Made by a program: the position numbers and the translations under genes
Shown here: positions 2,656 through 61,698 of the stretch, one piece after another
How the letters are laid out: the number at the start of each line of letters is the position of its first letter
How positions within the stretch are numbered: the first letter of the stretch is position 1
Source: an uncultured Gemmatimonadota bacterium
GTDB taxonomy: Bacteria > JAAXHH01
Assembly (NCBI GenBank): GCA_951812955.1
Contig: OX638340.1
Coordinates: 672,001-736,000, forward strand
Direction of reading: 5' to 3'
Length of the DNA stretch: 64,000 nucleotides
The notes under the pieces: generated by a model
Seen by the model: only the letters and a program-made list of their open reading frames with translations
Databases searched by the model: none
What the model was told of the DNA's origin: nothing

Positions 2656-5600
2656 TTACTTCAACACCCCGATGCGCGCGACATGCCCGCCGAGTTTGAG
2701 TTCGCCGGCGTGCACATCCACAGGTACGGGCTCCTCGCGCAGTTCCGTTGAAAGCGTTTCGGTCCTGATGTAGTCCGCGTGGGCGTCTATGGCCTCGGCC
2801 AGATCGCCTTCGGCTTCGTAGAACAGGGTAATCCTGTCGTTCACGTTGAAATCCGCTTCCTTGCGCATATTCTGCACATGACGGACAAAATCCCGCATCA
2901 ATCCCTCGAGGAGGAGATCGCGGGTGACCCTGGTGTCAATGGCGACCGTGCAGCCAAAGTCGGATGTCACCGCGAGCCCGTCCGCATCCACCCGTTCGAC
3001 AACGAGCTCCTCAGGCGTCAGCTCGACCTGTTCGCCGTCCACTTCAAGCGAAAGGGACCCGCCCGCCGCGACACGGGCACCGGTTTCGTGGCCGTCCAGC
3101 ACCTCGAGCGCCTGGCGCACGGCATTCAAACGCTTGCCGAACCGGGGACCCCATTTTGAAAAATCCGGTTTCACGGCGTACCCGCGAAAGGCATCCTCAT
3201 TATCGACCAGGTCCAGGTCCTTCACATTCAGTTCTTCCAGGATCTGAGCGCGCAGCCGCGTCAGGGTGTCTCCCTGCCGGGCGGTCGCGGGTTTCACCAG
3301 CAGGCGCAACGCGGGCTGGCGGACCTTCATCCGGGCTTCGTTGCGAACCGCGCGGCCCAGTTCGATCACCTGCATCAGGTCTTCCATGTCGTCCATGAGG
3401 TCCTGGTCGATCAATTCCTCGGAGACCTCCGGGTATCTGCAGAGATGGACGCTTGATGGCGCTGAAGAATCGATGGGCGGAACCAGGCTCTGATAGAGTT
3501 CCTCCGCGGAGAAAGGCAGAATAGGCGCGATCAGCTTGCTCATCGTGACCAGAACTTCGTAGAGCGTCTGGATGGCCGATTGCTTGTCCGCGTCATCGCC
3601 GCTCTTCCAGAACCGGCGCCTGCTCCGGCGGACGTACCAGGTGGAAAGCACGTCCATGAACCGTTCGGTTTCGCGTACCACGGTCGCCGAATCGAAATTA
3701 TCCAGCCGGTCGTTGCAGAGTCGGACCAGTTGATTGAGCCGGGAAAGCACCCACCTGTCGAGTTCGCTACGGCCCGAAACAGGAGCTGAGGCAGAAATGG
3801 GAGGGCAGTCCGGCAGATTGGCGTAGGTCACGAAGAAAGCGTATACGTTCCACAACCTGAGCATTTTCCGCATGACGTCTTCGGCGGGTCCATAGCCGAA
3901 CCGGAAGACCATGTTCAGCGGCGCGCCAGCGTATTGCCATCTCATCACATCGGCGCCCATACGGGCGGTGGCGTCCTCCACGGCGATCGCGTTATCGCCG
4001 CTCTTGCTGAAGGGTTCCCCGTTCTCGTCCCGCATTTCTTCGAAGGTGAGTACCGCCTTGAACGGGGTCCGGTCGTACAGGGTCACCGACATGAACAACT
4101 GGGAATAGAACCACAGCCTGATCTGTTCGCGCATTTCCGTGATCCAGTCAGCGGGAGACCATGATTCCCAGGCAGTATCCGTGCCGTTGCGGGAAACTCC
4201 GGTCTTGTCCCTTTCGGCCTCGGGCCCCCGTTCCGACCGGATCGTGCCATTGATCCCGCGGTGCTCCGGCAGATAGTTCAATGTTGAAAAAGGGACGATT
4301 CCCGCGTCGAGCCAGCAGTCCCCGACTTCGGTCACCCGCTTTACGGCCTCTCCGCAACGCTCGCAGGAAATCTCGATATCATCGATCCACGGACGATGGA
4401 GTTCGGGCAGCTCTTCGACCAGCGCGGGATTCACGGCCCGCTGCCGCAGTTCGGCCGTGCTGCCGATGACGTTCACGTGATCGCAGTTCCCACAATTGTA
4501 GAAGGGCAGGGGCAACCCCCAGAATCGGCGGCGCGATATGCACCAGTCCCCCATGTTGTCCAGCCAGTCCTGCATCAGGAGGCCGCTGTATTCGGGTACC
4601 CACCGGACCGTCGCGGCGGCCTGCTTCATCGGCGCCCTGATCTCGTCCGCTGAAATGAACCACTCGTCGGCCAGGCGAAAGACCAGCGGAGTCTTGCAAC
4701 GCCAACAGAAGGGATACCGGTGCGTGTAGTCTTCCCAGCGAAACAACACGCCCCTGGATTCCAACTCCCGCCTGACGCCTTCTGCTGATTCCCGTACATG
4801 GGTGGCTGTCAGTGGCCCCATATCGTCTGTGAAATAACCGTTCTCATCAATGGGCACAATGATGGCCAGGCCGAGTTCCTGCCCGAGCTGATAATCCTCG
4901 GCGCCACAGCCCGGTGCGATATGCACGATGCCCGTGCCTTCCTCGTCAGATACCATGTCCCACGGAACGGTGGTGCGGTTGACCTCACGCTGCGCGGGGA
5001 GATCCTCCAGAGGGCCGTGGAAGGGCAGCCCGATCAGATCCTTGCCCTTCACGGTCTCGACCACTACCGCTTCGGGCGGCAGGACGGTCTCGACGAGTGA
5101 CTTCATCAAGTAGTAGTATTCGCCGTCCAGGCTCGCTTTCGCGTATTCGGCTTCAGGATGCAAGGCCAGGGCCGTATTGGCGGTCAGGGTCCACGGCGTA
5201 GTGGTCCAGACCAGGAAATACTCGTCCCTTCGGCCCCCGACCCGGCATCGGAAGAAACAGGATGGATCGGTCTGCTCCTGGTAAGAATCCACCAGCTCGT
5301 GCTGGCTCAGGCTGGTCCCGCACCGCCAGCACCAGGGCATGGAACGGTAACCGCGGTACAGCCATTTCCTGGCGTCGCAGGCCTTCAGAAAATGCCAGAT
5401 ATGCTCGATGTTGTTGTCATCCAGGGTGTAGTAGGAGGCCGGATGGCCGTCGTCGTGGTACCACTGCATCCAGTGTCCCATGCGAATGGACTGCCGCGTT
5501 ATCCGCTCCGCGTACTCGTCCACCCGAGCGCGGCACGCCCGGGAGAACTCGGCGAGACCGAACGACTCGATGTCCCGTTTCGAATCAAAACCAAGCGCCC

Positions 5601-7097: not shown

Positions 7098-7133
7098 GGG
7101 CGTACCGTCATCAAGGGCGTACCGTCATCAAGG
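7098..7133. repeat. Perfect 18-bp tandem duplication (gggcgtaccgtcatcaag x2) in the divergent intergenic region just upstream of the sulfatase gene
   Basis: Read directly at 7098-7115 and 7116-7133. Confidence 0.8.
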
Positions 7134-7174
7134 GCATACCCCCAGTAACGACGCGAAGAAGGAGTAGATGTAAA

Positions 7175-8577
7175 TTGCATAGCGAAAAACCCAACATCCT
7201 CTTTTTGTTTTCAGATGACCAGCGCTTCGATACGGTGAATTCGCTTGGAAATCCAGGCGTGCATACGCCGTCGATGGATCGGCTTGCGGCACGGGGGACG
7301 GCCTTCACGCACGCGCACATTCCCGGAGGCACGTCCGCCGCGATATGCATGCCGAGCCGTGCCATGCTGCACACCGGGCGCACGCTGTTTCACCTGGACG
7401 GCGCGGGCGAGGACATACCTCGGGACCATGTGCTCATGGGCGAGCATCTGAAAAGTTGCGGATACCGCACCTGGGGCACGGGCAAATGGCACAACGGCGT
7501 CTCGGCTTTCGCACGCAGCTTTTCTGATGGGGCCGAGATATTCTTCGGAGGTATGGACGACCACTGGAACGTGCCCGTCTTCGACTATGATCCGCAAGGC
7601 CGGTATGAAGGGACGTTACCGCAGTGTCCCGACGCGTTTCATTCCAATGCGTTGAAAGTCCGGCGCGGGGACCGCGTGTCGGCGGGAAGGCATTCCAGCG
7701 AGTTGTTCGGCGAATGCGCCGCGGACTGGCTGGAGAGCTACGAAGGCACCGATCCATTTTTCATGTACGTGTCCTTCATGGCGCCCCACGATCCCCGGAC
7801 CGTGCCACAGGCGTACCTGGACCTGTACGATCCGGAACAGATCCCGCTTCCCGGCAATTTCCAGGGCGGCCATCCCTTCGACAACGGCGATCTCAAAGTC
7901 AGGGATGAAGTGTTGGAAGATTTTCCGCGCGACCCGTTTAAAGTACGCCGGCACATCGCCGAATACTACGGAATGATCACCCACCTGGACGCCCAGATGG
8001 GCCGAATCCTGGACGTGCTGGACACCCGGGGCATGACGGACAATACGATCGTGGTCTTTGCCGGCGACAACGGATTGGCCGTGGGGCAGCACGGACTGTT
8101 CGGCAAACAGAACATGTACGAACACAGCGTGCGGATTCCCCTTATGTTCGCCGGACCGGGAATACCCCGGGGGTTTGCCGATCTTCCTACGCTTACCTGC
8201 TGGACATCTTCCCGACGCTGTGCGAACTGGCCGGCATCGATACACCCGAATCCGTCGAAGGAACGAGTCTGGCCTCCGCCATGGCGGATCCCGGCGTGCG
8301 ACCCCGGACATCCCTGTATGCCGCGTACCAACAGTGGCAACGCATGGTCAAGGATGCCCGGTTCAAACTGATCGAATACGTCGTCGACGGCCGTCGAACG
8401 ACCCAGTTGTTCGACCTGGAACGCGATCCGTCGGAGTGTCGCAACCTGGCCGGCGATCCGTCCGAACAGGACCGGCTGCGAGCACTCAGGGACCTGCTTT
8501 TTCAATGGCGCGACGACTGGGACGATGCCCGGAGTCCATGGGGCAAGGCCTTCTGGGACGGTTACGACGCCCATTGA
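7175..8577 (+). pseudogene. Cys-type sulfatase (arylsulfatase family) interrupted by a single -1 frameshift near 8180-8190; either a pseudogene or a 1-nt assembly error
   Basis: Frame A (7175..8371) carries LFLFSDDQRFD and the C-M-P-S-R FGly motif. Frame B (8191..8577) continues with AYLLDIFPTLCELAGI...LERDPSECRNLA, the conserved sulfatase C-terminus. Inserting one nucleotide near 8183 restores ...GIPRGFADxSYAYLLDIFPTL. Confidence 0.6.
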
Positions 8578-8609: not shown

Positions 8610-10346
8610 TCAGGCGACGGCCGTCCGGTTCCTGGCAATCCGGTACAGTATCTGGCTCATGGCGCCAAGTCCCAATATGACCAGCAACCCGTTGACAACC
8701 CAGCCGACATAGGGCAGGCTGACCGCGACCAGCACCAGTACCAGTCCAACAGACAACGCCAAAGCCACCGAACGCATGTCCTGCCGCTTCGATCGCAACA
8801 GTGCGGTGCCCAGATAGTGCGCCACGACGATCTTGGACAGGTAAAGTCCCACCGCCCATATAACCACCGTGACCAATCCTACTGGAATACCGATGAGTGT
8901 CACGGCAAACACCGCCGCTGCGACCGGCAGGGTAATGAGGATAACAACCCCGGTGCCGGCGGACACGAGTATCGACCTGAAATCTTCCAGCGGCTGGATT
9001 CTGAAAGCGGGTAGTGCCCAGAACACCAACATGCCCGATATGAATGCCGCGGCCAGCCACAAGACCGAAAACAGGAGCGACCAGAACGACCAGGACGACC
9101 AGAACGACCCGGCCTCCTCCTGGCGCTCTTCGTAAACGTCGATACTTGTCGTGCCCGCCACAGATGAGACGGAGTCCACCAGCAGGTCTTCCTCACTCGG
9201 CAATTCCACGTCGAGGTTGCCGCCGATCGATGCGGACGACTGAATGGCCGCAACACGCCCCGAGAAGGTTACATCCCGCAATACCTTGCCCGATACGGTA
9301 AGCCTGTTGCCGAACACCGTCACATTGCGGCCTACCGAACCGCCCACGTTGATCTGGTCGGCGAAAGCAAAAAGATCGCCTCCGATAGCGGCGTCCCGTC
9401 TCGTTAGAATGGACTTGCCGAACCAGTATACGCTTTGTCCGACCGTATTTCCCATGCGAATCATCTCTCCGAATGCCCCGACTCCGCCTTCGACCTTGCC
9501 TTCAATCTCTATGATCTGCCCGAAAAAGAACGCGTCTCCGTGCACCGAGCCCTGGATATCGATCGATTCCGCGAAGGCGATCAGGTCTCCGGTTACCACC
9601 CCGTCAATACGCACGGTACGACCGAAGGCAACGAAGGTGTCATCGATGACTTCATTGGCTTCAATCGACACACTCTCGCCGGATTTGATCTCGATGGCTT
9701 TCGCCGGCGTGGCTGCTATGAATGCCAGAATCAGGGTGCCAAGTATCACCGGCAACCCAGAGGACCTTTGAAAACTCGCATAAATCAAATAGACAAGCGT
9801 GCCGAGAAGGGCGGTGATTCCGGCGGTTATCATCAGGGATTCCATGATCGATCCTCCTTCGCGAATTAAATAGACACATGAGCTGAACAGCAGGGACAGC
9901 TGACCGGAAACCTGGAGCGGATTGAGCCAGGCCAGTCCCCAGGGCAGCTGAAGTCCGGTAACCAGGTCGAACCCCATCCTCAACAAAAGCGCGGTTCCGA
10001 TGACCAGTCCCATGAGTTGCAGGACCAGTGCCGGGGAAGAGGCCGGGACAGGCACATGAGACGAGGCCGGGACAGGCACATGAGATGAGGCCGGGACAGG
10101 TAACGGAGATGAGGCCGGGACAGGTAACGGCTCAGATTCAGCCAGGAACGCATCTGCGTTACCGATAAACCCGACGAGCGTTTCTCTTTCCACCTGGAAC
10201 GCAAGGACCAGTTCACGGCAACGGGGACAGCGGTCCAGATGTTCGCGCAACAGCTTGGCTTCGGATACGGACAACTCGCCATCGGCGTACATCGCGCAGG
10301 TCAGTTCGGCCGGACAGGACTTGCTACGCACACCTGTATCGGTCAT
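8610..10346 (-). CDS. Anti-sigma factor: N-terminal zf-HC2 zinc finger, PVPASS 8-aa repeats, TM segments, a beta-helical bactofilin/CcmA-like repeat domain and a C-terminal multi-TM region
   Basis: CPxC...CPRCRELV zinc-finger motif. Its start overlaps the stop of the upstream ECF sigma gene (ATGA). Repetitive V-x-G-x-V-x-GD-x-x-FA motifs and hydrophobic stretches are present. Confidence 0.65.
   Translation of the reverse strand: MTDTGVRSKSCPAELTCAMYADGELSVSEAKLLREHLDRCPRCRELVLAFQVERETLVGFIGNADAFLAESEPLPVPASSPLPVPASSHVPVPASSHVPVPASSPALVLQLMGLVIGTALLLRMGFDLVTGLQLPWGLAWLNPLQVSGQLSLLFSSCVYLIREGGSIMESLMITAGITALLGTLVYLIYASFQRSSGLPVILGTLILAFIAATPAKAIEIKSGESVSIEANEVIDDTFVAFGRTVRIDGVVTGDLIAFAESIDIQGSVHGDAFFFGQIIEIEGKVEGGVGAFGEMIRMGNTVGQSVYWFGKSILTRRDAAIGGDLFAFADQINVGGSVGRNVTVFGNRLTVSGKVLRDVTFSGRVAAIQSSASIGGNLDVELPSEEDLLVDSVSSVAGTTSIDVYEERQEEAGSFWSSWSFWSLLFSVLWLAAAFISGMLVFWALPAFRIQPLEDFRSILVSAGTGVVILITLPVAAAVFAVTLIGIPVGLVTVVIWAVGLYLSKIVVAHYLGTALLRSKRQDMRSVALALSVGLVLVLVAVSLPYVGWVVNGLLVILGLGAMSQILYRIARNRTAVA
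10036..10131 (-). repeat. 24-nt in-frame tandem repeat x4 encoding (P/H)(L/V)PVPASS inside the anti-sigma gene
   Basis: ggccgggacagg recurs every 24 nt at 10041, 10065, 10089 and 10113. Confidence 0.75.
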
Positions 10347-11108: not shown

Positions 11109-14010
11109 CTAATCCTCTACAACGACTTTCTCGACCGCCACAGCGCAGTACTTGAACTCGGGGATCTTGCCCTCGGGATCCAGCGCGTCGTTGGTCAGGA
11201 TATTGGCGGCCGCTTCCTTGAAGTGGAAGGGAATGAAAACGTTGCCTTCGGCGACCCGCGTCGAAGCCTTCGACTTCAGCGTGATGGCGCCGCGGCGGGA
11301 GGAGACGACGACCGGTTCGCCGTCGACTACGCCGAGCAGGTCCAGGTCTGCCGGCGTCATCTCGACGAACGCTTCGGGCGCTATGGCATCCAGGGCCTTC
11401 GCCCGGCGGGTCATGGTTCCCGTATGCCAGTGTTGCAGAAGCCGTCCGGTATTCAGGACAAAGGGGAACTCAGCGTCCGGCAGTTCATCGGGCGGCGCGA
11501 AGGATACGGGCATGAATCGCCCCCGTCCGATGGGGAAGGTGTCGCTGAAGAGGATGGGCTCGTCAAGCGGCCATACCACCGTGCTTTGTTCCATCGATTC
11601 ATAGGTGATCCCATTGAATATAGGCGTTAGGCCCACGATCTCCTCCCAGACTTCCTCCGGCCCCCCGTATTCCCATGCGTCTATCGCATCGCCTTGCTCC
11701 ATCCGTATCATCCGGTTGGCCAGATCGATCAGTATATCCCCGTCCAGCCGCGCTTCGCCTGGTGGCTGGATCGCCTGCCTGCCGACCTGGACCATGCGGT
11801 TGGTGTTGACATAGGTGCCTCGTTTCTCGATCGCGGTGGAAGCCGGCAGGACCACGTCGGCGAATTCGGCGGTCTCCGTCAGGAAGATGTCCTGAACGAC
11901 CAGGAAGGACAGGTTCTGCAGGGCTTTTCTTACCTTGTTCATGTTCGGGTCCGACAGGAAGGGATTCTCTCCCATCATGAACATGCCCGCGATGCGTCCA
12001 TCGAGCGCGCCGTGCATGATCTCCACGACGGTCAGTCCATCCGCCGGATCCAGGGCTTTGCCCCATGCGGATTCGAATCGTCTGCGAACTTCCTGGTCCG
12101 TAACAGGCTGATAGCCCGGGTAGTACCGGGGGATCAGTCCCACGTCAGAAGCGCCCTGCACGTTGTTCTGGCCGCGCAGGGGATGCAGCCCGGTGCCGCG
12201 GCGCCCGATATTGCCGGTCATGAGACACAGCGAAATGAGCGCGCGGGCATTGTCGGTGCCCTTGACGTGCTGGCTGATCCCCATGCCCCAGAAGATGATC
12301 GCCCGCTCCGCGCGCCCGTAAACTCGCGCCAGCTCTTCAATCAATTCCGCGGAAACGCCGGTGATCCTGGAGGTCATTTCCGGGTTGTATGAACGCACCG
12401 ATTCGGCGAGTGCTTCGATTTTTTCGGTACGGTCCGCGATGAACGCGTCGTCCTGCAATCCTTCCCGCAGAATTACGTGCATCAATCCGTTGAGTAACGC
12501 GACATCCGTGCCGGGCTTGAACCGCACGTACCGGGTGGCGTGGTCCGCGATGGTGGGCCGACGCGGATCGAGCACGTAGAGCTTGATCCCCTTCTGGGCC
12601 GCCTGTTTCAAGTAGGTGGCGGCAACGGGATGGTTGTCCTCGGTATTGGAGCCGATCACGAAGATCACGTCCGTATCGAGGACTTCCTGGAAGGCGTTCG
12701 ACACGGCCCCGCTTCCGATGGCCTCCGTGAGTGCCGCAACGGAAGACGCGTGGCAGAGACGCGTGCAGTGGTCTACGTTGTTGGTACCGAATACGACACG
12801 GATCAGCTTCTGGAAGAGGTAGGCTTCCTCGTTGGTGACCTTGGCCGAACCGAAGCCGGCCAGGGCGCCCGGTCCGTTCGATTGCTTGATTTCCAGCAGC
12901 TTTCGGGCCGCGAGGTCGAGCGCCTCATCCCATTCGGCTTCCCGGTATACTTCGCGGATGCGGTCGTTCCAGTCCGCGGACCGCAGCGAACGCCTGAATT
13001 CCCGGTAATCCGTAAAATCCGCCGAAAGCGGTTGCTTGGGATAGGCGTCTTCCCTCCTGATGAGCGGTTTCAGGAGCCGCTGCGGATGGTGCGTGTAGTC
13101 GTAGCCATACCTTCCCTTGACACACAGCCTGCCTTCCGTGTGGGTTTCCTCCCGTCCGGTCGCCCTCAGGATCCTGTTGTTTCGAACATGGTACGTGATG
13201 CCACAGCCCACCCCGCAGTAGGGACACAGGGAGTCGATCCGCGTAACGTCCCGTTCATCCCCTTGCGAAACGACATCGCGGGGTACGTGTTGTTCGCGAT
13301 CGGACAGGCAATCCGGGTCTGCGGCCGGTTTCACGGACCCGGGACTGCTCCCGGCCGTATCTACGAGCGGGATGTCGGTCAGAGCCCCGGTGGGACAGGC
13401 GGCCACACATTCACCGCAGGAGACGCAGGAGGACTTCCCCATGGGCAGGTCGTTGTCGAAGGCGATCCGGGTACCGCAGCCCTTGCCGGCACGGCCAATG
13501 ACGTCGTTTACCTGCACGTCGTCGCAGGCGCGGATACAACGGTCGCACAGGATGCAGGCATTGTGCGCCACCGCGATCACCGGCGAGGACACATCCTCAT
13601 GTTGCGTCGGATTCGGCGCCGCCGGGGCAAACCTATCGGGTCGCGCGGCGAGTTGCCTACCCAGACGCGCCAGTTCATCATGCTCGACCGGCTTGCGCCG
13701 TTCCGGCGCCTTCGGCTGTCCGGCCTCCAGCAATTCCACGAGGGTACGGCGGGTGCGCCGGACCCGCTCCGTATCGGTACGCACGACCATGCCCTCTTCC
13801 ACCTGGCGGATGCAAGCCGCCGGCAAGGTCCGGGCGTTTTCCACGTCTACTACGCACACGCGGCATACGGCCACGGGACGCATCCCTGGATCGTGGCAAA
13901 GCGTGGGGATTTCGATACCGGCCGAGCGGGCCGCATCCCAGATCGTGGCGCCTTCCGGCGCGGTTACGCGTCTGCCGTCGAGGGTCAGCGTCACGGAATC
14001 ACTGCGCATC
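11109..14010 (-). CDS. fdhA: Formate dehydrogenase catalytic (alpha) subunit, molybdopterin oxidoreductase with N-terminal 2Fe-2S/4Fe-4S domains; Cys-type with no in-frame TGA
   Basis: N-terminus MRSDSVTLTLDGRRVTAPEGATIWDAA...CHDPG...CRVC followed by multiple Cys clusters and the molybdopterin-binding regions. The longer ORF extending to 14189 reads through the upstream gene's 3' end and is not credible. Confidence 0.8.
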
Positions 14011-15702
14011 GGCACCGCCCGTGGTACGATCGGCCTGGCGATCGGCCTGAGGATCGGCCTGGCGATCCGCCGCTTGCCGACAGAGGATCTCGAACTCTTC
14101 CGGGAAATGCCGGCGGGCGGAGGTAAGCGGAAGTGCCGCAGCCTGGCCGAGCCCGCATATGGACGATAGCTCCATCGCTTCTGCAACATCCTTTACGGGT
14201 GCCAGCATGTCGGGCCGCCCGTTGCCTTCAAGTACCTTTTCCAATAGCTGAACGAGATGCTCCGTACCGGTCCGGCAGGGCACGCACTTTCCGCAGGATT
14301 CGTTGCGAAAGAACGTTACCGCGTTCAAGGCTAGATCCACCATGTTTGTGCCCTCGGCCAGAACGATGACCGCACCGGACCCCAGCATGGACCCGGCGTC
14401 CGCGAGGGGCTTGAAGTCAAGCGGGATATCCGCCATGGAAGCTGGAAGGAAACCCGACGACGTGCCTCCCGGAGAAAAGGCCTTCAGCTTGCGACCGTCG
14501 GAAACGCCGCCCCCCTCGTTATCAATGAGATCGCGAACCCGCGTTCCGAGGGGGATTTCGTACACGCCGGGCCGGTTGACATGCCCGCTGAGGGCGATGT
14601 ACTTGCGTCCCGCCGCGCCGTTTATCCCCTGGCTTCTGAACCATTCGGCGCCGCGACGCAAAATGGCGGGCACCCAGGCGAACGTCTCCACATTGTTGAT
14701 GAGCGTGGGCCTGCCGTGTAGCCCGTGCGTACCCGGGAACGGCGGCTTGTTCCGGGGTTCTGCACGTTTGCCTTCCATTGCTTCCAGCAGAGCCGTCTCC
14801 TCGCCGCAGATATAACCGCCCGGACTGTCGAAGATCTCAAGGTGAAACGAATGTTCCGAATTGAACACGCCGTCGCCCAGGTATCCCGCGGAGTAGAACG
14901 CCCTGATGGTCTTCTCCAGCACTTCCCGTTCCCGTTCGTATTCATGGCGAAGGTAAAGGTATCCCTGATTTGCCCCGACCACGAGACCACCCAGGATCAG
15001 CCCTTCGACGACGAGATGGGGATAGTGGTACAGGATCTCGCGGTCCTTGAACGTGCCGGGTTCGCTCTCGTCCGCATTGCAGATCGCGTACTTGTCCTCG
15101 GATTCGGCCTTTCGGACCAGATCCCACTTCACCCCCGTCGGGAACCCGGCTCCGCCCATGCCGCACAGCCCGCTGTCCTTGATTACCTGCAGAATCCGGT
15201 CCGAGTTGCCGTCCGAAACCCACGCTTTTAACGATTCGGCGGCCAGTGGATGGCCATAGGGATCAATAAGCCCGGGGCTGGCACGCCGCCGGGTGGGCTG
15301 CCGGGCGACCCTTCCGTCCTCGGCCAACCGGGCGACGAAATTGCTAAGACGGTCCGGTGACATGGAACGGTAACTGAGATCGTTGATCGAGACCGCCGGC
15401 GCCCCATCGCACTGTCCAAGGCAGGAAACTCCGGTTACCTCCCAGTTTTCAAGCCCGGCATAATCCACGGTTTCCCGCAGGGTCTCCAGCAGGTCACAGG
15501 CGCCGTGGAGGTGGCACGTGAGGTCGGTACAGACGCGCAGCGTAGCCACCGGGGGAGGCTCAAGTCTGAAGTGAGGGTAGAAGCTGGCCACGCCATGGGC
15601 TTCGTAGAGGGGAATGCCCTTCCGCTCCGACAGGGATTTCAGTTCATCTTCAGGCAGATAGCCGTGGCGCGCCTGTATCTCCTTCAGATCATCTATCAGC
15701 AT
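13999..15702 (-). CDS. NuoE-like thioredoxin-fold 2Fe-2S domain fused to NuoF-like NAD/FMN/4Fe-4S flavoprotein (formate dehydrogenase beta/gamma fusion)
   Basis: N-terminal VCTDLTCHLHGA...CLGQCDGAP (NuoE 2Fe-2S) followed by the GMGGAGFPTG and ESCGKCVPCR motifs of the 51-kDa NuoF family. The 12-nt overlap with fdhA start suggests translational coupling. Confidence 0.8.
   Translation of the reverse strand: MLIDDLKEIQARHGYLPEDELKSLSERKGIPLYEAHGVASFYPHFRLEPPPVATLRVCTDLTCHLHGACDLLETLRETVDYAGLENWEVTGVSCLGQCDGAPAVSINDLSYRSMSPDRLSNFVARLAEDGRVARQPTRRRASPGLIDPYGHPLAAESLKAWVSDGNSDRILQVIKDSGLCGMGGAGFPTGVKWDLVRKAESEDKYAICNADESEPGTFKDREILYHYPHLVVEGLILGGLVVGANQGYLYLRHEYEREREVLEKTIRAFYSAGYLGDGVFNSEHSFHLEIFDSPGGYICGEETALLEAMEGKRAEPRNKPPFPGTHGLHGRPTLINNVETFAWVPAILRRGAEWFRSQGINGAAGRKYIALSGHVNRPGVYEIPLGTRVRDLIDNEGGGVSDGRKLKAFSPGGTSSGFLPASMADIPLDFKPLADAGSMLGSGAVIVLAEGTNMVDLALNAVTFFRNESCGKCVPCRTGTEHLVQLLEKVLEGNGRPDMLAPVKDVAEAMELSSICGLGQAAALPLTSARRHFPEEFEILCRQAADRQADPQADRQADRTTGGADAQ
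14028..14075 (-). repeat. 12-nt tandem repeat (gatcggcctggc/gag, about 3.5 copies) encoding a DRQA/DPQA repeat tail at the C-terminus of the NuoEF-like protein
   Basis: Read directly from the sequence. Confidence 0.7.
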
Positions 15703-19941: not shown

Positions 19942-20078
19942 CGTCGATTGACATACTTTCCCCTGAAGACGCCGCCGGCTTGCGTGGCGCGGTAGGGAAC
20001 ATCCGAAATTCACCGTTCGACATACTTTCCCTTGAAGACGCCGCCGGCTTGCGTGGCGCGATAGGGAACATCCGATTC
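19942..20078. repeat. Tandem duplication of about 69 bp (2 copies, about 95% identical) in the 5' region of the DapA-family gene; each copy contains a TTGACA hexamer
   Basis: gacatactttccc(c)tgaagacgccgccggcttgcgtggcgcg(g/a)tagggaacatccga occurs at 19950 and 20019. Confidence 0.75.
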
Positions 20079-20115
20079 GTACGTCATGTCCACCCGACTG
20101 GAAGGAGTTGTACGC

Positions 20116-42175: not shown

Positions 42176-43357
42176 CTAATAACAGGTACCGGAACGCCTC
42201 AATCCCTCCAGGCTGCATCCCCGCGCTAGGTCGTGTTCCTTGACCGTGCGGAAGAATTCTTCCATCCCGAGCAGAAAGGGTTCGATGTATTCCCGCGAAC
42301 CGGCCTTGCCCATGTGACCCACGCGTAGCGAGTCCCTTGCGAATTCACCCATGGCCTGTGCCGCCAGGAAGCCATGGTTGCGCAGCAGGTAGGTCCGCAG
42401 TTCCGCGGCTTCGGAAACGTCCGGGTGGACCCGGAAGGTAGTCACCGTGTAGGACGCGGCCGGATCGGCAACGATGGGGGCGCACCCCACCGCGCGCAGT
42501 CCGGCGCGGACCACGGACTGGGCCCATGCGTACCGGGACCAGTGGCCTTGAAGGGTCTCGCGGTGGATGATCCGCCGCAGGCTGGCGTGAAGGGAGACGA
42601 TCAGGCTGCTGGACTGCGTCGTGGGATAGGGATGTTCTCCCGAAGCTTCGGACGCCCGCTTCCAAACGGCGAGGTCGTAGTACCAGCCCCGGTGAGCGCT
42701 GTCCTTGGCGCGTATGATATCCCACGCCCGGTCGCTGACCGCCAGAATACCCAGGCCCGGTGCGGTTTCAAGGGCCTTGTTTGAAGAAGTCACGGCCACG
42801 TCGATCCCCAGTTCGTCCACGGGAATGTCATAGCCGCCCAGGGCCGAAACGCCGTCAACGAAGAAGGGCAGGTCGAACTCGCGTGCCAGGCCGGCATATT
42901 CCTCCAGGGGATTCCGGACGCCCGTGCCCGTATCGTTGGCGACCACGACCAGGCCGGCTGCCGCCGGATGCCGTTCAAGCGCATCGCGCATTTTGGCCGG
43001 ATCGGCGGGCTCGCCCCATGGGTCATCCACGGCGACGACCTCGCTTCGGAATGCCTTGAGTATTTCGACGAGCCGGTTGGCGAATGGGCCGTTGGTCGCC
43101 ACCACCACCTGTTCACCGGGCCGGAAGAGGCTGCACAGCCCCGCATCGAGCGCGCCGGAACCGGGGGCGGTCATGATGATGATGTCGTTACGGGTCTGGA
43201 AGATGGTCCGGAGCATCGATACGGTTTCTTCGTAGATGGGACCGAAGTCTTCGCCGTAGTGGGGCAGTACCTGCTCGCTCAGGGCCTGCAGGGTTTCCTC
43301 CCAGATATCGATGGGACCGGGCAACAGCAATTTGGGTCGGGCCATGGGTTTACTCAA
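42176..43357 (-). CDS. Class-V aminotransferase (AGXT / serine-pyruvate / PhnW-like)
   Basis: ...VDGVSALGG...VTSSNKAL... PLP-lysine region; about 390 aa. Its start overlaps the upstream aminotransferase stop. Confidence 0.75.
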   Translation of the reverse strand: MSKPMARPKLLLPGPIDIWEETLQALSEQVLPHYGEDFGPIYEETVSMLRTIFQTRNDIIIMTAPGSGALDAGLCSLFRPGEQVVVATNGPFANRLVEILKAFRSEVVAVDDPWGEPADPAKMRDALERHPAAAGLVVVANDTGTGVRNPLEEYAGLAREFDLPFFVDGVSALGGYDIPVDELGIDVAVTSSNKALETAPGLGILAVSDRAWDIIRAKDSAHRGWYYDLAVWKRASEASGEHPYPTTQSSSLIVSLHASLRRIIHRETLQGHWSRYAWAQSVVRAGLRAVGCAPIVADPAASYTVTTFRVHPDVSEAAELRTYLLRNHGFLAAQAMGEFARDSLRVGHMGKAGSREYIEPFLLGMEEFFRTVKEHDLARGCSLEGLRRSGTCY

Positions 43358-45631: not shown

Positions 45632-46588
45632 TCAATCGGTCCGGCTTCCCGGATCACCCGCGCCTTCGGCCTTTGCCCGTTCGTAGACGACGGCGGCCAC
45701 GGCCACATCTTCCACGGCCAGCCCCTGGGATTCGAAGAGGGTAATTTCATCGGAATCGGTACGGCCTGGCACGTGGCCGGCAACTACGTCGGCCAACTCG
45801 TGGACGCGGTCCCATTGAAGGAGTCCCTTTTCCACCGATTCGAGCAAGTCTCCGCACTCCACCTTCGCCTGCTCCCTGGAATCGACGGTGACCACGCCGG
45901 CTCGACTGACCGTCTCCGCATCGATTTCACTGCGTATGAGCGCGTTGGAACCAGCTGCGTTCACATGGGTGCCCGGTGCGAGCCAGGCGCCTTCCAGCAC
46001 CGGTCGCGCCGCGCTGGTGATCGTGATCGCCACTTCCACTTCTTCAACGCAGGCCCTGGCTGAATCAGCCGGGCGTACCGGCACTCCCAGGGCCTCGCTC
46101 ATCTCGCGGCAATACGCCTCTCTTCGCGTCCGATCCCGTCCATAGGCTTTAACACCCGTCACGTTGCGTACTTCACATACTGCAGCCAACTGGCTTCGGG
46201 CCTGCCATCCCGTTCCGATCACTCCCACGGTAGCCGCGTCATCCCGCGCCATGTACTTCGTCGCCACGCCGCTCGCCGCGCCCGTTCGCATCTGGCCGAG
46301 CCGGTCGGCCTCGATCGCAACCAGCGGTTCGCCCGTGTCGGCTTTGAACAATAAAACCAGGAATCTCGCACCGTGCCGCGTAGTCGTGTACGCTTTCAGT
46401 CCGGTGAGATTCAACTCCGGGATCCCCCCGGACATGACGTGGAGCGTATGGCCCGGAAGCCGTACCCTCGAACGCGGGATGTTGACCGCCGATCCAGCGC
46501 CGAGTCCACGGAACACTTCTTCGACCGCGCGGACTGCCGCGGCCATGGACAGTAAACCTCCTACTTCTTCCTCATTGATGTACAGCAT
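45632..46588 (-). CDS. Ornithine cyclodeaminase / mu-crystallin family protein
   Basis: ...LTGLKAYTTT...VGVIGTGWQARSQL... Rossmann motif and OCD family length. Confidence 0.8.
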   Translation of the reverse strand: MLYINEEEVGGLLSMAAAVRAVEEVFRGLGAGSAVNIPRSRVRLPGHTLHVMSGGIPELNLTGLKAYTTTRHGARFLVLLFKADTGEPLVAIEADRLGQMRTGAASGVATKYMARDDAATVGVIGTGWQARSQLAAVCEVRNVTGVKAYGRDRTRREAYCREMSEALGVPVRPADSARACVEEVEVAITITSAARPVLEGAWLAPGTHVNAAGSNALIRSEIDAETVSRAGVVTVDSREQAKVECGDLLESVEKGLLQWDRVHELADVVAGHVPGRTDSDEITLFESQGLAVEDVAVAAVVYERAKAEGAGDPGSRTD

Positions 46589-46620
46589 GCTTGCGCTCCG
46601 ATCGGTTCGGTTAACGGTTC

Positions 46621-46760
46621 CGGGAACTTCGCTGCCGTCCGGGAACTCCGCTGCCGGACGTGAACTCCGCTGCCGTCCGGGAACTCCGCTGCCGTCCGGG
46701 AACTCCGCTGCCGGACGTGAACTACGCTGCCGTCAGGGCACTCCGCTGCCGGACGGCACT
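46621..46760. repeat. 19-bp tandem repeat, about 7 copies (consensus cgggaactccgctgccgtc), non-coding, in the divergent intergenic region between the OCD-family gene and the MFS transporter gene
   Basis: Units read directly. The period is not a multiple of 3, and copies alternate ...gccgtc / ...gccgga endings. Confidence 0.85.
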
Positions 46761-46941
46761 CCACTGGTGACAGCGCGTGTTCAAACCGGAGCGGCCATGC
46801 CTCGGGCGAACGGGCGGTGATCCCATACAGCAGGCCATGATATCCGGTCCTTCGACGGGGTGTCAAGGCCAATGTTACGGCTTAACCGCAGAGGACGCGC
46901 GTCTTGACAGTACCCGTGGGCGTGGTATCTTCAGCTTCGTC

Positions 46942-48177
46942 ATGCCTCTGCCCTTCCAAGCGTTTCGAGACCGGTTTCCCGCGCTCCGATACCGCGATTT
47001 CCGCCTCCTGTGGTCCGGTCAGATCGTTTCGCTTACCGGATCACGAATGCAGCAGACGGCCGTGCTGTGGCATATGTATTTGTTGACCGAGTCCGCGTAT
47101 GCCCTTGGTGCGATGGCAGTTATAAGACTCATACCCATCGTGATTCTTTCTCCGCTCGCCGGTGTGATCGCCGACACCCATGACCGCAAGCGCGTACTGC
47201 TCATCGCCCAGTGCGGCCTCGCCCTGATCAGTACGACGCTGGCGTGGATCACCTGGTCGAGCCAGGATTCCCCCACCATGTTGTATGTGATCACCGCCAT
47301 AAGCGCTGGGATCGGTTGCTTCAGTAGCCCGGCCAAAAACGCCATGGTGCCGAACCTGGTCGACCGGAGGCACCTGGCCAACGCCATGAGTATCAACATC
47401 ACCGCCTCCCATGTCGCATCGGTGACCGGGCCGGGCATTGCCGGCCTGATCCTGGCATCGGGCTCAATCGCGGCCGTTTACTGGATCAATACGGTTTCAT
47501 TTGTCTTCATGATTGTTCCAATCCTCATGTTGCGTTCCGGGCACCGCAGCATCGGCGGCGTGACACGGGTCAGCTTTGCGGCAGCGCTCGAGGGGCTGCG
47601 GTTCATAAGGCGTTCGTCCATTATACGCTCGGCGATGTTGCTGGACTTCACCGCTACGTTCTTTGCGTCCGCCACATCGTTGCTGCCGATTTTTGCCGTT
47701 GAAGTACTGGACGTCGGGGAACAGGGGTACGGCCTGCTTACGGCGGCCCCGGCGATCGGCGCCGTGCTGACCGGCGCAATCATGTCCACCTTCCCAGTGA
47801 TTTCGGGCCAGGGACGGCTGTTGTTCAAAGCGGTGGCGTGTTACGCGCTGGCCACCGTGGTCTTCGGCATATCATCAAGCTTCTGGCTCACCTTCGCCGC
47901 GCTGTTCCTGACTGGGGCGTTCGATACGGTAAGCATGGTGCTGCGCCATACCGTCATGCAGCTGTCGACCCCGGATGAATTGCGCGGCCGCATGACTTCG
48001 GTGAACATGATTTTCGTCATGGGCGGACCCCGGCTCGGCGAAGCAGAAGCCGGCCTGGTGGCGGGACTCGCGGGAGCCCCCTTCTCCGTAATTACAGGTG
48101 GGATCGGCTGCCTCGTGGCCGTCGCCGTCATAGCCTGGCGGTCTCCCACGTTGAGACGATACGACGGCCAACGATGA
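46942..48177 (+). CDS. MFS transporter
   Basis: 12-TM hydrophobic profile with an N-terminal MFS motif region (...LWSGQIVSLTGSRMQ...). ATG 46942 is chosen over the longer ORF. Confidence 0.75.
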   Translation: MPLPFQAFRDRFPALRYRDFRLLWSGQIVSLTGSRMQQTAVLWHMYLLTESAYALGAMAVIRLIPIVILSPLAGVIADTHDRKRVLLIAQCGLALISTTLAWITWSSQDSPTMLYVITAISAGIGCFSSPAKNAMVPNLVDRRHLANAMSINITASHVASVTGPGIAGLILASGSIAAVYWINTVSFVFMIVPILMLRSGHRSIGGVTRVSFAAALEGLRFIRRSSIIRSAMLLDFTATFFASATSLLPIFAVEVLDVGEQGYGLLTAAPAIGAVLTGAIMSTFPVISGQGRLLFKAVACYALATVVFGISSSFWLTFAALFLTGAFDTVSMVLRHTVMQLSTPDELRGRMTSVNMIFVMGGPRLGEAEAGLVAGLAGAPFSVITGGIGCLVAVAVIAWRSPTLRRYDGQR

Positions 48178-58650: not shown

Positions 58651-58785
58651 CCCGGACAGTCAGGCCCAAACGGCTGCGAATGACGATCCAGGTGGTCCGG
58701 GCTGTCAGGCCCAAACGGCTGCGAATGACGATCCAGGTGGTCCGGGCTGTCAGGCCCAAACGGCTGCGGCTGGCGATCCAGGCGG
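58651..58785. repeat. 45-bp tandem repeat x3 in the intergenic region downstream of the HtrA-like gene and upstream of the AKR gene
   Basis: ccgggctgtcaggcccaaacggctgcgaatgacgatccaggtggt repeated; the third copy is degenerate. Confidence 0.8.
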
Positions 58786-58813
58786 TTTTAGACAGTCCAG
58801 GCAGTCCAGCAGA

Positions 58814-60124: not shown

Positions 60125-61057
60125 TCAGAACGAGATACGGACGCGTCTGAGAGGGGTGGTCGGACCTGACGACCCTTGCGTGTCAGGCGAACCAGGCAAA
60201 CCATATGCTCGCTGTGTTGCGCGAAATTCGGTGGTTCCGACGGGTTGCAGACGTTCCTCCGTCGTCGGTTGATCTATATTGCCGCTGGTATCCAGGCCCC
60301 GGCCGAAGGACTCGCTGAACAGGGATGGATCGAGGCGCATGCCCGTACCTGCCGACACGAATCGGATCCCATGGGTTTTTGGTTCCATGGTCCTGACGGT
60401 CATGATGCCCGGTCTGTTGCCGGTGATTCCGGATGCGTTCAAAGAGAGACTGGATGCAGAAGAAGTGGGGAGAATGGATGCCTGTTCCTGGCTCAGTGCC
60501 GGCTTTACCGCCATGTACGGCGCGAGTTCTCTTTCTAGGGGAAAGGGCGAAATCGGATCGGGGGGTGCAAGTTCGGGTTCAACGGGCGTCGGCAGGGAAA
60601 AGGCCATGGGAGGGGACGGAGACGATTCGGACCGCCCCGTAGGCGCGGACAGTTCCCAGAATCCGCCGATCACGGTTATGGTAAGGATCAGGCTGGTCGC
60701 AAATACCAGTTGAACGGGACGCTGCCGGCTGTGTTCGCCCAGTTCGGCAAAAGCCCCCGATACGCGCCTCCACCAGGAAGCGGCGTACAGTTCACGGGCA
60801 ATTTCCAGGTTCAGCAGATTACCGAGTCGATGATCGAATCCTGGTTGAGGGGATACGGCGGGCAGACTCTTCACGGCCTGTATGGAGCTTTCCATGTCAT
60901 CAATCTTGAGCCGGCACCGTGGACATCCGTTCAGGTGAAACCGTAGTTCGTCTTCGGTTGCCTTCGACAACTGACCGTCCAGGTAGTCGGACATCTTCCG
61001 CTCGTAACCACTACAGTTCAAAATATCCTTCCTCCTCAAAGTATCTCTACCTGCCAC
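60125..61057 (-). CDS. Anti-sigma factor, zf-HC2 type, single-pass
   Basis: ...LNGCPRCRLKIDDMES... zinc-finger, one TM (LVFATSLILTITVIGGFW) and a Pro/Ser-rich periplasmic tail. Its start at 61057 overlaps the ECF gene; an alternative ATG lies at 60994. Confidence 0.65.
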   Translation of the reverse strand: MAGRDTLRRKDILNCSGYERKMSDYLDGQLSKATEDELRFHLNGCPRCRLKIDDMESSIQAVKSLPAVSPQPGFDHRLGNLLNLEIARELYAASWWRRVSGAFAELGEHSRQRPVQLVFATSLILTITVIGGFWELSAPTGRSESSPSPPMAFSLPTPVEPELAPPDPISPFPLERELAPYMAVKPALSQEQASILPTSSASSLSLNASGITGNRPGIMTVRTMEPKTHGIRFVSAGTGMRLDPSLFSESFGRGLDTSGNIDQPTTEERLQPVGTTEFRATQRAYGLPGSPDTQGSSGPTTPLRRVRISF

Positions 61058-61698
61058 TGCCTGAGCATTTCCTGCAGTCTCAGCCGGCCCCGGTTGACCC
61101 GCGACTTGACGGTTCCGGTCGGACAGTGCAGTATCTCGCCGATCTGTTCGTAAGACAGTTCTTCAATATCGCGCAGCACGATCACGGATTTGTATTTCTC
61201 CGGCAGTTGATCGATCGCGTGCTGGATGGCCCTGCCCAGTTCATTCTGCTCCAGGTGATCGCCAGGCCCCGCGTTCTTGTCCGGCAGATCGATTCCTTCC
61301 CTGGTGCTGTTCTCGTGGGGCGACGCGTTCAGGGAGAAGAACTGGCGGCGTTTTCGCTTGCGCAACTCGCTCCGGGCGAGATTGAGCGCGATGGTATAAA
61401 TCCAGGTGGAAAGATTGGAGATCGCCTTGTAGTTGTGGCGGTTCCGGTAGACCCTGAGAAACGTCTCCTGCACCAGGTCTTCCGCGCACTCCATATTGTG
61501 GACCATGCGATAAATGCAATTATACAACCTGGTACGGTATCTTCCGACGATAACTTCGAAAGCGCGCGCATCCTCCCGTTGAACCCGGATGAAAAGCGCT
61601 TCATCCGACAGGGTCAATTCGTCGAGCACCCCTGATTCGATATCGGAGACCTGTACCGCGTTTATATAGGTGTTGTCAGCCATTTTCTTCTCTCCCAT
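61036..61698 (-). CDS. ECF sigma factor (RpoE-like)
   Basis: Region 2 (...AEDLVQETFLRVYRN...) and region 4 (...LSYEQIGEILHCPTGTVKSRVNRGRLRL...). Confidence 0.85.
   Translation of the reverse strand: MGEKKMADNTYINAVQVSDIESGVLDELTLSDEALFIRVQREDARAFEVIVGRYRTRLYNCIYRMVHNMECAEDLVQETFLRVYRNRHNYKAISNLSTWIYTIALNLARSELRKRKRRQFFSLNASPHENSTREGIDLPDKNAGPGDHLEQNELGRAIQHAIDQLPEKYKSVIVLRDIEELSYEQIGEILHCPTGTVKSRVNRGRLRLQEMLRQWQVEIL

Follow-up and report, generated by a model that had tools for sequence, protein, structure and literature searches.

The stretch of DNA analysed here, called the window throughout, comprises 64,000 nucleotides of contig OX638340.1 (assembly GCA_951812955.1, positions 672,001 to 736,000 of the forward strand). 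Its host is a sponge-associated Gemmatimonadota bacterium. The subject of this study is a tandem array of 19-bp units, located between two divergent genes of the window. One of them encodes a protein of the ornithine cyclodeaminase/mu-crystallin (OCD) family, and the other encodes a transporter of the MFS_3 family. An initial annotation, made from the sequence alone, had placed the array between an OCD gene starting at 46588 and an MFS gene starting at 46942, and this location was confirmed with Pfam. The features of the locus are as follows.

45632 to 46588, minus strand: OCD family gene, 318 amino acids (aa) (Pfam PF02423, E 3e-61; synteny).
46589 to 46618, minus strand: leader segment from the array to the OCD start, with the near-palindrome AGTTCCCGGAACC and the ribosome-binding site (RBS) CGGAGCG (sequence, alignment).
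46619 to 46751, minus strand: variable minisatellite of seven 19-bp units (Tandem Repeats Finder, TRF; unit register; alleles of 1 to 7 copies at the orthologous site).
46752 to 46770, minus strand: degenerate eighth unit GACGGCACTCCACTGGTGA, which closes the array towards the promoter (unit register).
46837 to 46866, minus strand: predicted sigma-70-type OCD promoter, with -35 TTGACA (46866 to 46861), an 18-nt spacer and -10 TATCAT (46842 to 46837).
46904 to 46931, plus strand: predicted divergent MFS_3 promoter, with -35 TTGACA, a 16-nt spacer with extended TG and -10 TATCTT.
46942 to 48177, plus strand: MFS_3 family transporter gene, 411 aa (Pfam PF05977, E 4e-53, match from residue 14).

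The array was delimited with TRF. The segment from 46619 to 46751 was found as a repeat of period 19 with 7.0 copies, 85% matches and a score of 196. It was also found as a repeat of period 57 with 2.3 copies, 94% matches and a score of 238. The seven tandem copies of the initial annotation were thereby confirmed, and its interval of 46621 to 46760 is the same array with the phase shifted by 2 nt. The seven units, in plus-strand letters, are listed below.

Unit 1, starting at 46619: TCCGGGAACTTCGCTGCCG
Unit 2, starting at 46638: TCCGGGAACTCCGCTGCCG
Unit 3, starting at 46657: GACGTGAACTCCGCTGCCG
Unit 4, starting at 46676: TCCGGGAACTCCGCTGCCG
Unit 5, starting at 46695: TCCGGGAACTCCGCTGCCG
Unit 6, starting at 46714: GACGTGAACTACGCTGCCG
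Unit 7, starting at 46733: TCAGGGCACTCCGCTGCCG

There are two unit types, A (TCCGGGAACTCCGCTGCCG, with a TCC-type junction) and B (GACGTGAACTCCGCTGCCG, with a GAC-type junction). The order of the units is AAB AAB A', and the degenerate eighth unit is B'; the period of 57 bp corresponds to the higher-order AAB block. A regular alternation of gccgtc and gccgga had been described at the ends of the units. The variation is real and reflects the two types, but the alternation is not strict. The units are not identical, and diagnostic substitutions are located in units 1, 6 and 7. In the mRNA sense, the unit reads CGGCAGCGGAGUUCCCGGA. The junction octamers CCGTCCGG and CCGGACGG are mutually reverse complementary, and therefore 10-nt perfect inverted repeats are present within the array. 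The eighth unit is an older and decayed edge of the array, and its diverged form is common to all close relatives. All units abut at an exact spacing of 19. A clustered regularly interspaced short palindromic repeat (CRISPR) array, which had already been discounted for the lack of spacers, is ruled out on the same ground.

A consensus scan gave two strong promoter-like sites placed back to back, against 0.2 expected from shuffles, and the predicted OCD promoter has 11 of 12 matches to the consensus. In a set of 12 lineages reaching down to 79% OCD protein identity, its -35 box shows no change. The -10 box is TATCAT in 11 of these lineages and TAATAT in one (locus L009), and the spacer has a constant length of 18 nt with a variable sequence. 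The MFS_3 promoter is conserved in all 12 lineages as well and is unaffected by the array. Its -10 box is separated from the ATG at 46942 by 10 nt, there is no Shine-Dalgarno (SD) sequence, and these 10 bases vary across the 12 lineages. From these sequence features, the mRNA of the MFS_3 gene appears to be of the leaderless type.

The two promoter-like sites (46837 to 46931) are located together, beyond the right-hand edge of the array. Therefore, the array is located in the predicted 5' leader of the OCD gene and not between promoter elements. The suggestion that its copy number alters the spacing of promoter elements was not borne out, and the array lengthens the predicted OCD leader instead. 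The OCD transcription start site (TSS) would be at about 46830, judging from the predicted promoter, and the array would then extend from about +79 to +211. The leader in the window is 248 nt long, measured from the end of the -10 box to the ATG. The array is at least 86 nt downstream of the OCD -10 box and about 150–290 nt upstream of the MFS -35 box. The GGAG core of the RBS ends 9 nt upstream of the OCD ATG. Of the whole leader, just the RBS block CGAAYGGAGCG is kept in all lineages, and the leader apart from this block evolves freely. The OCD gene is monocistronic and convergent with an HpcH aldolase gene.

Related loci, designated by numbers with the prefix L, were gathered in several ways. 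A scan for a pattern of two adjacent units, performed on one genome per GTDB species, returned five loci. Two of the five are orthologous, namely L002 from 'Gemmatimonadetes bacterium APA_bin_41' and L005, the 3.9-Mb metagenome-assembled genome (MAG) chromosome OY762445.1. Over 8 kb, their identity to the window is about 95% in each case. The other three (L001, L003 and L004, from Streptomyces pratisoli, a Planctomycetota MAG and an Anaerolinea MAG) are non-homologous loci with short repeats of 19-bp period in 2–4 copies containing GGCAGCG(G/A)AGT. They share GGCAGCG because the search pattern was constructed that way. Further syntenic loci were obtained via homologues of the OCD protein and of a nearby TauE protein, and by a promoter-pattern scan of metagenomes. 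The loci fetched number 35.

The loci of the close relatives are collinear with the window at 94.5–97% identity. The full 20.7-kb loci of L018, L019, L022 and L031 gave only three pieces each in megablast against the window. In L018, L019 and L031, the long middle piece begins inside the 19-bp array and ends inside a second array of 45-bp units, which is described below. The gene order is identical even in the deeper relatives, with SBP_bac_5, Amidohydro_2 and MFS_3 on one side and OCD, HpcH, two class-V aminotransferases and BrkB on the other. The second class-V aminotransferase gene (window equivalent 42176 to 43357, 393 aa) is truncated or split in three relatives. Its remnants are found at 345 to 953 in L021 (202 aa), at 70 to 1252 in L031 (227+176 aa) and at 70 to 1240 in L032 (214+172 aa), and they may represent pseudogene formation.

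The copy number at the orthologous site varies widely among the close relatives, in agreement with the variability that the initial annotation had proposed to look for. The window has 7 copies, the largest number among 11 alleles. There are 6 copies in L023 = L024, 5 copies in L019, L022 and L010 = L025, 4 copies in L018, 3 copies in L002 and L005 = L031 = L032, and a single copy in L021, which is about 95% identical to the window. Changes are seen even between nearly identical loci. L002 and L025 have 3 and 5 copies despite 3-kb flanks that are 100.0% identical, and L022 has 5 copies against 6 in L023/L024 with the same 100.0% identity of the 3-kb flanks. L019 and L031, both in Mb-scale contigs, have 5 and 3 copies with flanks that are 98.3% identical. 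The allele of L018 is A A B A', and that of the window is an L018-like allele with one additional 57-bp AAB block. All length differences between alleles are multiples of 19, except one 7-bp internal duplication in L022-24. Besides, lineages have their own variants in all of their units, namely ..CTGCGCTGCCG in L002/L025, ..CTCCGATGCCG in L022-24 and a CCG/CTG alternation in L019. This indicates concerted evolution, as expected of a rapidly turning-over minisatellite.

These alleles also bear on the coding status. The array had been regarded as non-coding on the ground that its period is not a multiple of 3. This reason is weak, since the 57-bp period is divisible by 3 and open reading frames (ORFs) span the array on both strands. 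The conclusion itself stands, because alleles of 1, 3, 4, 5, 6 and 7 copies differ by 19-bp steps that would shift any frame. A coding repeat or a leader peptide was ruled out, as no frame is kept. In L025 (MKWU01000418.1, 3470 to 4570), the public call of the OCD gene has 366 aa instead of 318, with the ORF running through the 5-copy array. This start is over-extended because of the repeat.

In the deeper relatives, with 79–88% OCD identity, the array was not found in L007, L008, L009, L012 and L013 despite the same synteny and promoters. L013-16 (OCD identity 87%) have one diverged copy of the 19-mer and a leader of about 134–137 nt. L012, L007, L008 and L009 (87–79%) are without the array and have leaders of 127–132 nt. 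L006 (88%) has one 19-mer and, in a register that overlaps with it, a 12-bp x3.2 repeat, and its leader is 158 nt long. L017 (83%) has its own unrelated 17-bp x3.0 and 26-bp x2.3 repeats in a leader of 161 nt (repeats at 289 to 339 and 358 to 417), and the 17-bp repeat GGTCTGTCNNNGGAGCG contains an RBS-like GGAGCG. The more distant L011 (LXNJ01026364.1) has a leader of 60 nt without a repeat. It contains a 9-bp x7.6 repeat (27-bp higher order) at 1861 to 1928, between two divergent -35 boxes, and this is the sole case in the set altering the geometry of the promoter region. When the window array is collapsed to one unit, the leader becomes 137 nt long and matches that of L013 and that of L006 with its 12-bp repeat collapsed. 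Therefore, the array arose recently, by amplification of a sequence that was already present in a single copy.

The array was found to be confined to this locus. The 16-nt core GGGAACTNCGNTGCYG has 7 matches in the array and one further match, with 3 mismatches, elsewhere in the window. A shuffle control gave a mean of 1.5 matches and none of 100 shuffles reached 8, which excludes chance. In the complete 3.9-Mb relative chromosome OY762445.1, only one stretch matched and no second locus was found. Therefore, the array is not a dispersed element. Likewise, only one stretch matched the 19-mer pattern in the other species representative (L002), the degenerate core was found at the orthologous site only across the 35 fetched loci, and the viral contigs searched gave no match. 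The mycobacterial interspersed repetitive unit (MIRU) type of variable-number tandem repeat (VNTR), and the repetitive extragenic palindromic (REP) and bacterial interspersed mosaic element (BIME) units, each represent one family spread over many genomic loci. They resemble the array in being intergenic and in having variable copy numbers per locus; the difference is that the 19-mer is confined to one locus. A dispersed, mobile, REP-type or MIRU-type element is thereby ruled out, and the view of the array as locus-specific rather than REP-like was upheld.

Several functional possibilities were examined at the level of RNA and DNA structure. With Rfam, at E-values up to 10, no match was obtained in the intergenic region or the array, and the three listed matches are at chance level inside the flanking genes. 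RNAalifold with 7 leaders did not find a conserved leader structure (consensus -1.66 kcal/mol, 6 pairs). The RNA folds of the leader and the array had z values of -0.77 and -1.03, no better than shuffles. A riboswitch or structured leader was ruled out by these results. The DNA fold had a z value of -1.60, with 11 of 200 shuffles as good; as this is at most suggestive, a DNA hairpin or cruciform was rejected as a strong feature. CsrA-type sites with GGA in a loop were also rejected. The A-B junctions can form a 7-bp stem with the 11-nt loop CAGCGGAGUUC, but most units are without a stem, and the L002/L025 variant is without GGA. The loop CAGCGGAGUUC is also a poor fit to the CsrA consensus. 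In a partition-function model with 0–7 units, the accessibility of the SD/RBS would shift between 0 and 2 copies and stay flat from 2 to 7. Since the modelled SD is mostly paired at any copy number of at least 2, there would be no graded effect, and occlusion of the RBS tuned by copy number was rejected.

In our reading, which we hold with a probability of roughly 0.7, the array is a young, lineage-specific and hypervariable VNTR in the predicted OCD leader, driven by slippage and with little or no dedicated function. It would have originated in the 5' leader of the OCD gene, which is under little constraint, when the 19-mer GACGGCAGCGGAGTTCCCGG, already present there once, was amplified in tandem. 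Units and multi-unit blocks would then be gained and lost via replication slippage or unequal recombination. These events may be favoured by the direct repeats and possibly also by the 10-nt inverted repeats that come from the two junction types. The sole direct consequence would be a lengthening of the predicted OCD leader from about 130 to about 248 nt in 19-nt steps. The fitness effect of the array is most likely small or none. We infer the slippage mechanism, the near-neutrality and the leader status. The array is neither a conserved set of binding sites for a regulator nor an RNA element or a mobile element. It matters little as a regulatory element, because no evidence of a dedicated function was obtained.

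Bacterial intergenic VNTRs or minisatellites, of the type used in multiple-locus VNTR analysis (MLVA), have been reviewed (Zhou, Aertsen and Michiels 2014, FEMS Microbiol Rev 38:119, taken here as cited in PMC4679880). Like them, the array consists of head-to-tail, non-coding units within the range of 10–100 bp, its copy number varies between strains, it is homogenised within the array over whole units, it changes by whole units or blocks, and it is locus-specific. Unlike the usual VNTRs, it is found in an uncultured sponge-associated Gemmatimonadota lineage, and several such arrays occur in one 64-kb window.

Some observations weigh against this reading. In the clade of about 95% average nucleotide identity, 10 of 11 alleles have at least 3 copies, and this retention could result from selection for an expanded leader and not from mere persistence. 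Copy numbers taken from short-read assemblies (L002, L022-L025) could reflect collapsed arrays, since the assembler's k may be shorter than a perfect repeat. In the mRNA sense, an SD-like GGAG or GAGG is present in most of the 19-mer units. GAGG or GGAG is found in the 12-mer of L006 and the 17-mer of L017 as well, the chance expectation being 8–12% per unit; the observation of these motifs in the 19-, 12- and 17-bp units was post hoc. Together with the independent repeats in the same leader of at least three lineages, these motifs hint at a translational role.

Such a role is the core of the alternative that survives best, although we consider it unlikely. The array might be a copy-number rheostat in the 5' untranslated region (5'-UTR), whose transcribed units set the level of OCD expression by way of the length or structure of the leader, the stability of the mRNA, or GGAG motifs serving as ribosome standby or decoy sites. 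Slippage would then supply heritable expression variants in the symbiont population, in the manner of the AGAT repeats of Moraxella catarrhalis uspA2. The location of the array, downstream of a conserved promoter-like site and upstream of the RBS, and the hypervariable copy number between near-identical strains, are consistent with this possibility. The GGAG in the units also forms the core of CGGAGCG, the RBS of the gene itself. On the other hand, the L002/L025 lineage has expanded a unit with GCAG in place of GGAG, and the modelled SD/RBS accessibility would not change from 2 to 7 copies. The OCD protein is a metabolic enzyme and does not belong to the surface or host-interaction factors. 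Comparable repeats of the lineage occur between convergent gene ends, where no leader exists, and L021 has a single copy at 95% identity.

The precedent of uspA2 deserves a closer comparison. Its 5'-UTR has 6–23 copies of AGAT with an expression optimum at 18, as described in PMC4679880 with reference to Attia and Hansen (2006). In both cases, a tandem repeat with strain-dependent copy number is located between the promoter (predicted here) and the start codon. The uspA2 repeat has a 4-nt unit and belongs to a virulence protein of the cell surface, and an expression optimum has been demonstrated for it, whereas the array has a 19-nt unit in 1–7 copies, a metabolic OCD enzyme and a predicted TSS. 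By this analogy, a tuning role like that of uspA2 could be imagined for the 19-bp array, but it is improbable, and none of the computations made here lent it support. If it were true, it would extend 5'-UTR repeat rheostats from pathogen surface genes to symbiont metabolic genes. A wider version of the idea is somewhat more doubtful still. It holds that leader minisatellites serve as evolvability devices in the sponge-symbiont lineage, with copy-dependent OCD translation or mRNA stability, a standing range of expression and selection, not mutation bias alone, behind the recurrent leader repeats of 19, 12 and 17 bp.

The behaviour of a classical contingency locus, which the initial annotation had also raised, is unproven. 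The gene is that of a metabolic enzyme, and the modelled RBS accessibility would be nearly constant from at least 2 copies. The repeats of contingency loci lie in a reading frame or in the core promoter, whereas the array is non-coding and outside both promoters. The TA repeats of Haemophilus hif are a contingency locus of the promoter-spacer type. The T-tract rheostat of Helicobacter pylori sabA is another one (PMC4081817). The likeness consists in length variants next to a promoter, which would arise here too by slipped-strand mispairing. The repeats of sabA and hif are within or just upstream of the -35/-10 boxes and change their geometry, whereas the 19-bp array is past the predicted -10 box.

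Far less probable is an iterated operator, in which the 19-mers bind a transcription factor for OCD, MFS or both, either in an iteron-like manner or as a leader roadblock for a repressor. The initial annotation had suggested iteron-like regulator sites, and the direct repeats with a 16-nt core, the small palindrome GTTCCCGGAAC at the gene-proximal end and the divergent intergenic setting would agree with this. However, the array is absent in the syntenic relatives of 79–88% OCD identity that keep both promoters. The positions of the core drift, with homogenisation within each lineage, and the 19-bp spacing is not helically phased. No gene for a DNA-binding regulator was found with Pfam among 20 neighbouring genes within about 12 kb of the array, and the closest gene of relevance, at 61036 to 61698, encodes an ECF sigma factor. 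Outside its locus, the motif was not found in the window or in any of the 35 loci, nor did the complete relative chromosome contain a further array of it, and the site is remote from both the OCD -10 box and the MFS -35 box. Iterons of plasmids and of oriC are likewise tandem direct repeats, of about 17–22 bp. Unlike them, the array is without an initiator gene, an AT-rich unwinding element and a plasmid context, and neither its copy number nor its sequence is conserved.

An assembly artefact, by which the 7 copies would be an expansion or collapse error, could be suspected because short-read assemblies are error-prone at tandem repeats and the copy number of the window is the highest, but it is very improbable, as independent assemblies including the Mb-scale L018, L019 and L031 have 3–5 units at the exact site, the window differs from L018 by one clean 57-bp block, and the 133-bp array is resolvable by ordinary reads owing to its non-identical units with diagnostic substitutions.

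The hypervariable VNTR in the OCD leader is not the only repeat of its kind in the window. A second, unrelated one was identified with TRF and by comparison with the relatives.

58652 to 58786, no strand: intergenic VNTR of 45-bp units, x3.0.

It is located between an AKR-family gene (minus strand, true start about 58489) and the stop (58814) of an HtrA-like protease gene. There are 3 copies in the window, 1 in L018, 2 in L019, 2 in L020, 2.2 in L031 = L033 and 0 in L022 = L026. Since this VNTR is variable in the relatives, the propensity for repeats is lineage-wide. The initial annotation had reported this repeat and a 69-bp x2 repeat, placed here at 19945 to 20075, and both are real. Its proposal that repeat expansion is a feature of the genome was supported as a trait of the lineage.

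The 19-bp and 45-bp arrays are the only alignment breaks between otherwise collinear genomes of about 95–97% identity. They can be used as MLVA-like strain markers for populations of an uncultured sponge symbiont. They are also sites where short-read assemblies and gene callers err.

Four lineage-specific intergenic minisatellites are present in the 64-kb window, and more were found in every relative examined. Between the OCD and HpcH genes, where their 3' ends converge, L006 has a 25-bp x2.6 repeat (4938 to 5002), L008 has a 33-bp x2.8 repeat (4935 to 5025) and L013 has 32-bp repeats of x2 (4910 to 4972) and x4.2 (5073 to 5206). The corresponding convergent gap of the window is only 15 bp. 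In the gap between the SBP and amidohydrolase genes, L007 has a 9-bp x7.6 repeat and L013 has an 18-bp x5.6 repeat. Repeats that arise with no promoter or leader nearby argue for a mutational propensity rather than a regulatory design.

A comparison with marine Beggiatoaceae leads to the same view. Their TAACTGA heptamer occurs as direct repeats at 169 sites genome-wide, and a post-transcriptional role has been proposed (PMC4679880). They are similar to the array as direct repeats of an environmental bacterium that are often located between promoter and start codon. Unlike this heptamer, the arrays of the window each have their own unrelated unit (19, 45, 69 and 17 bp), which again indicates a mutational propensity rather than a shared motif. 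The density of minisatellites in these Gemmatimonadota points to a slippage-prone background of replication or repair.

The two copies of the 69-bp direct repeat are 94% identical over 62 aligned nt, and the repeat ends 11 nt before the ATG of a plus-strand gene at 20086. Each copy opens with a TTGACA-like or TCGACA-like hexamer, and thus a promoter may have been duplicated. The 17-bp repeat GGGCGTACCGTCATCAA at 7098 to 7148 has two perfect copies and a third copy of 71%, and it ends about 30 nt upstream of a plus-strand gene at 7175.

In-frame repeats were observed as well. In a zf-HC2-like anti-sigma membrane protein (8610 to 10346, minus strand), the linker contains PLPVPASS/HVPVPASS x4, encoded by a 24-bp x4 repeat (10032 to 10130). 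A 12-bp x3.8 repeat (14027 to 14071, RPIL/RPIA) is found near the N-terminus of the ORF 11109 to 14189, possibly upstream of the true start. In L022, a 39-bp x2.3 repeat (12071 to 12159) is in frame at the C-terminus of a sulfatase. This sulfatase has 483 aa in L022-24, L026, L028 and L029, compared with 470 aa in the window and the other relatives.

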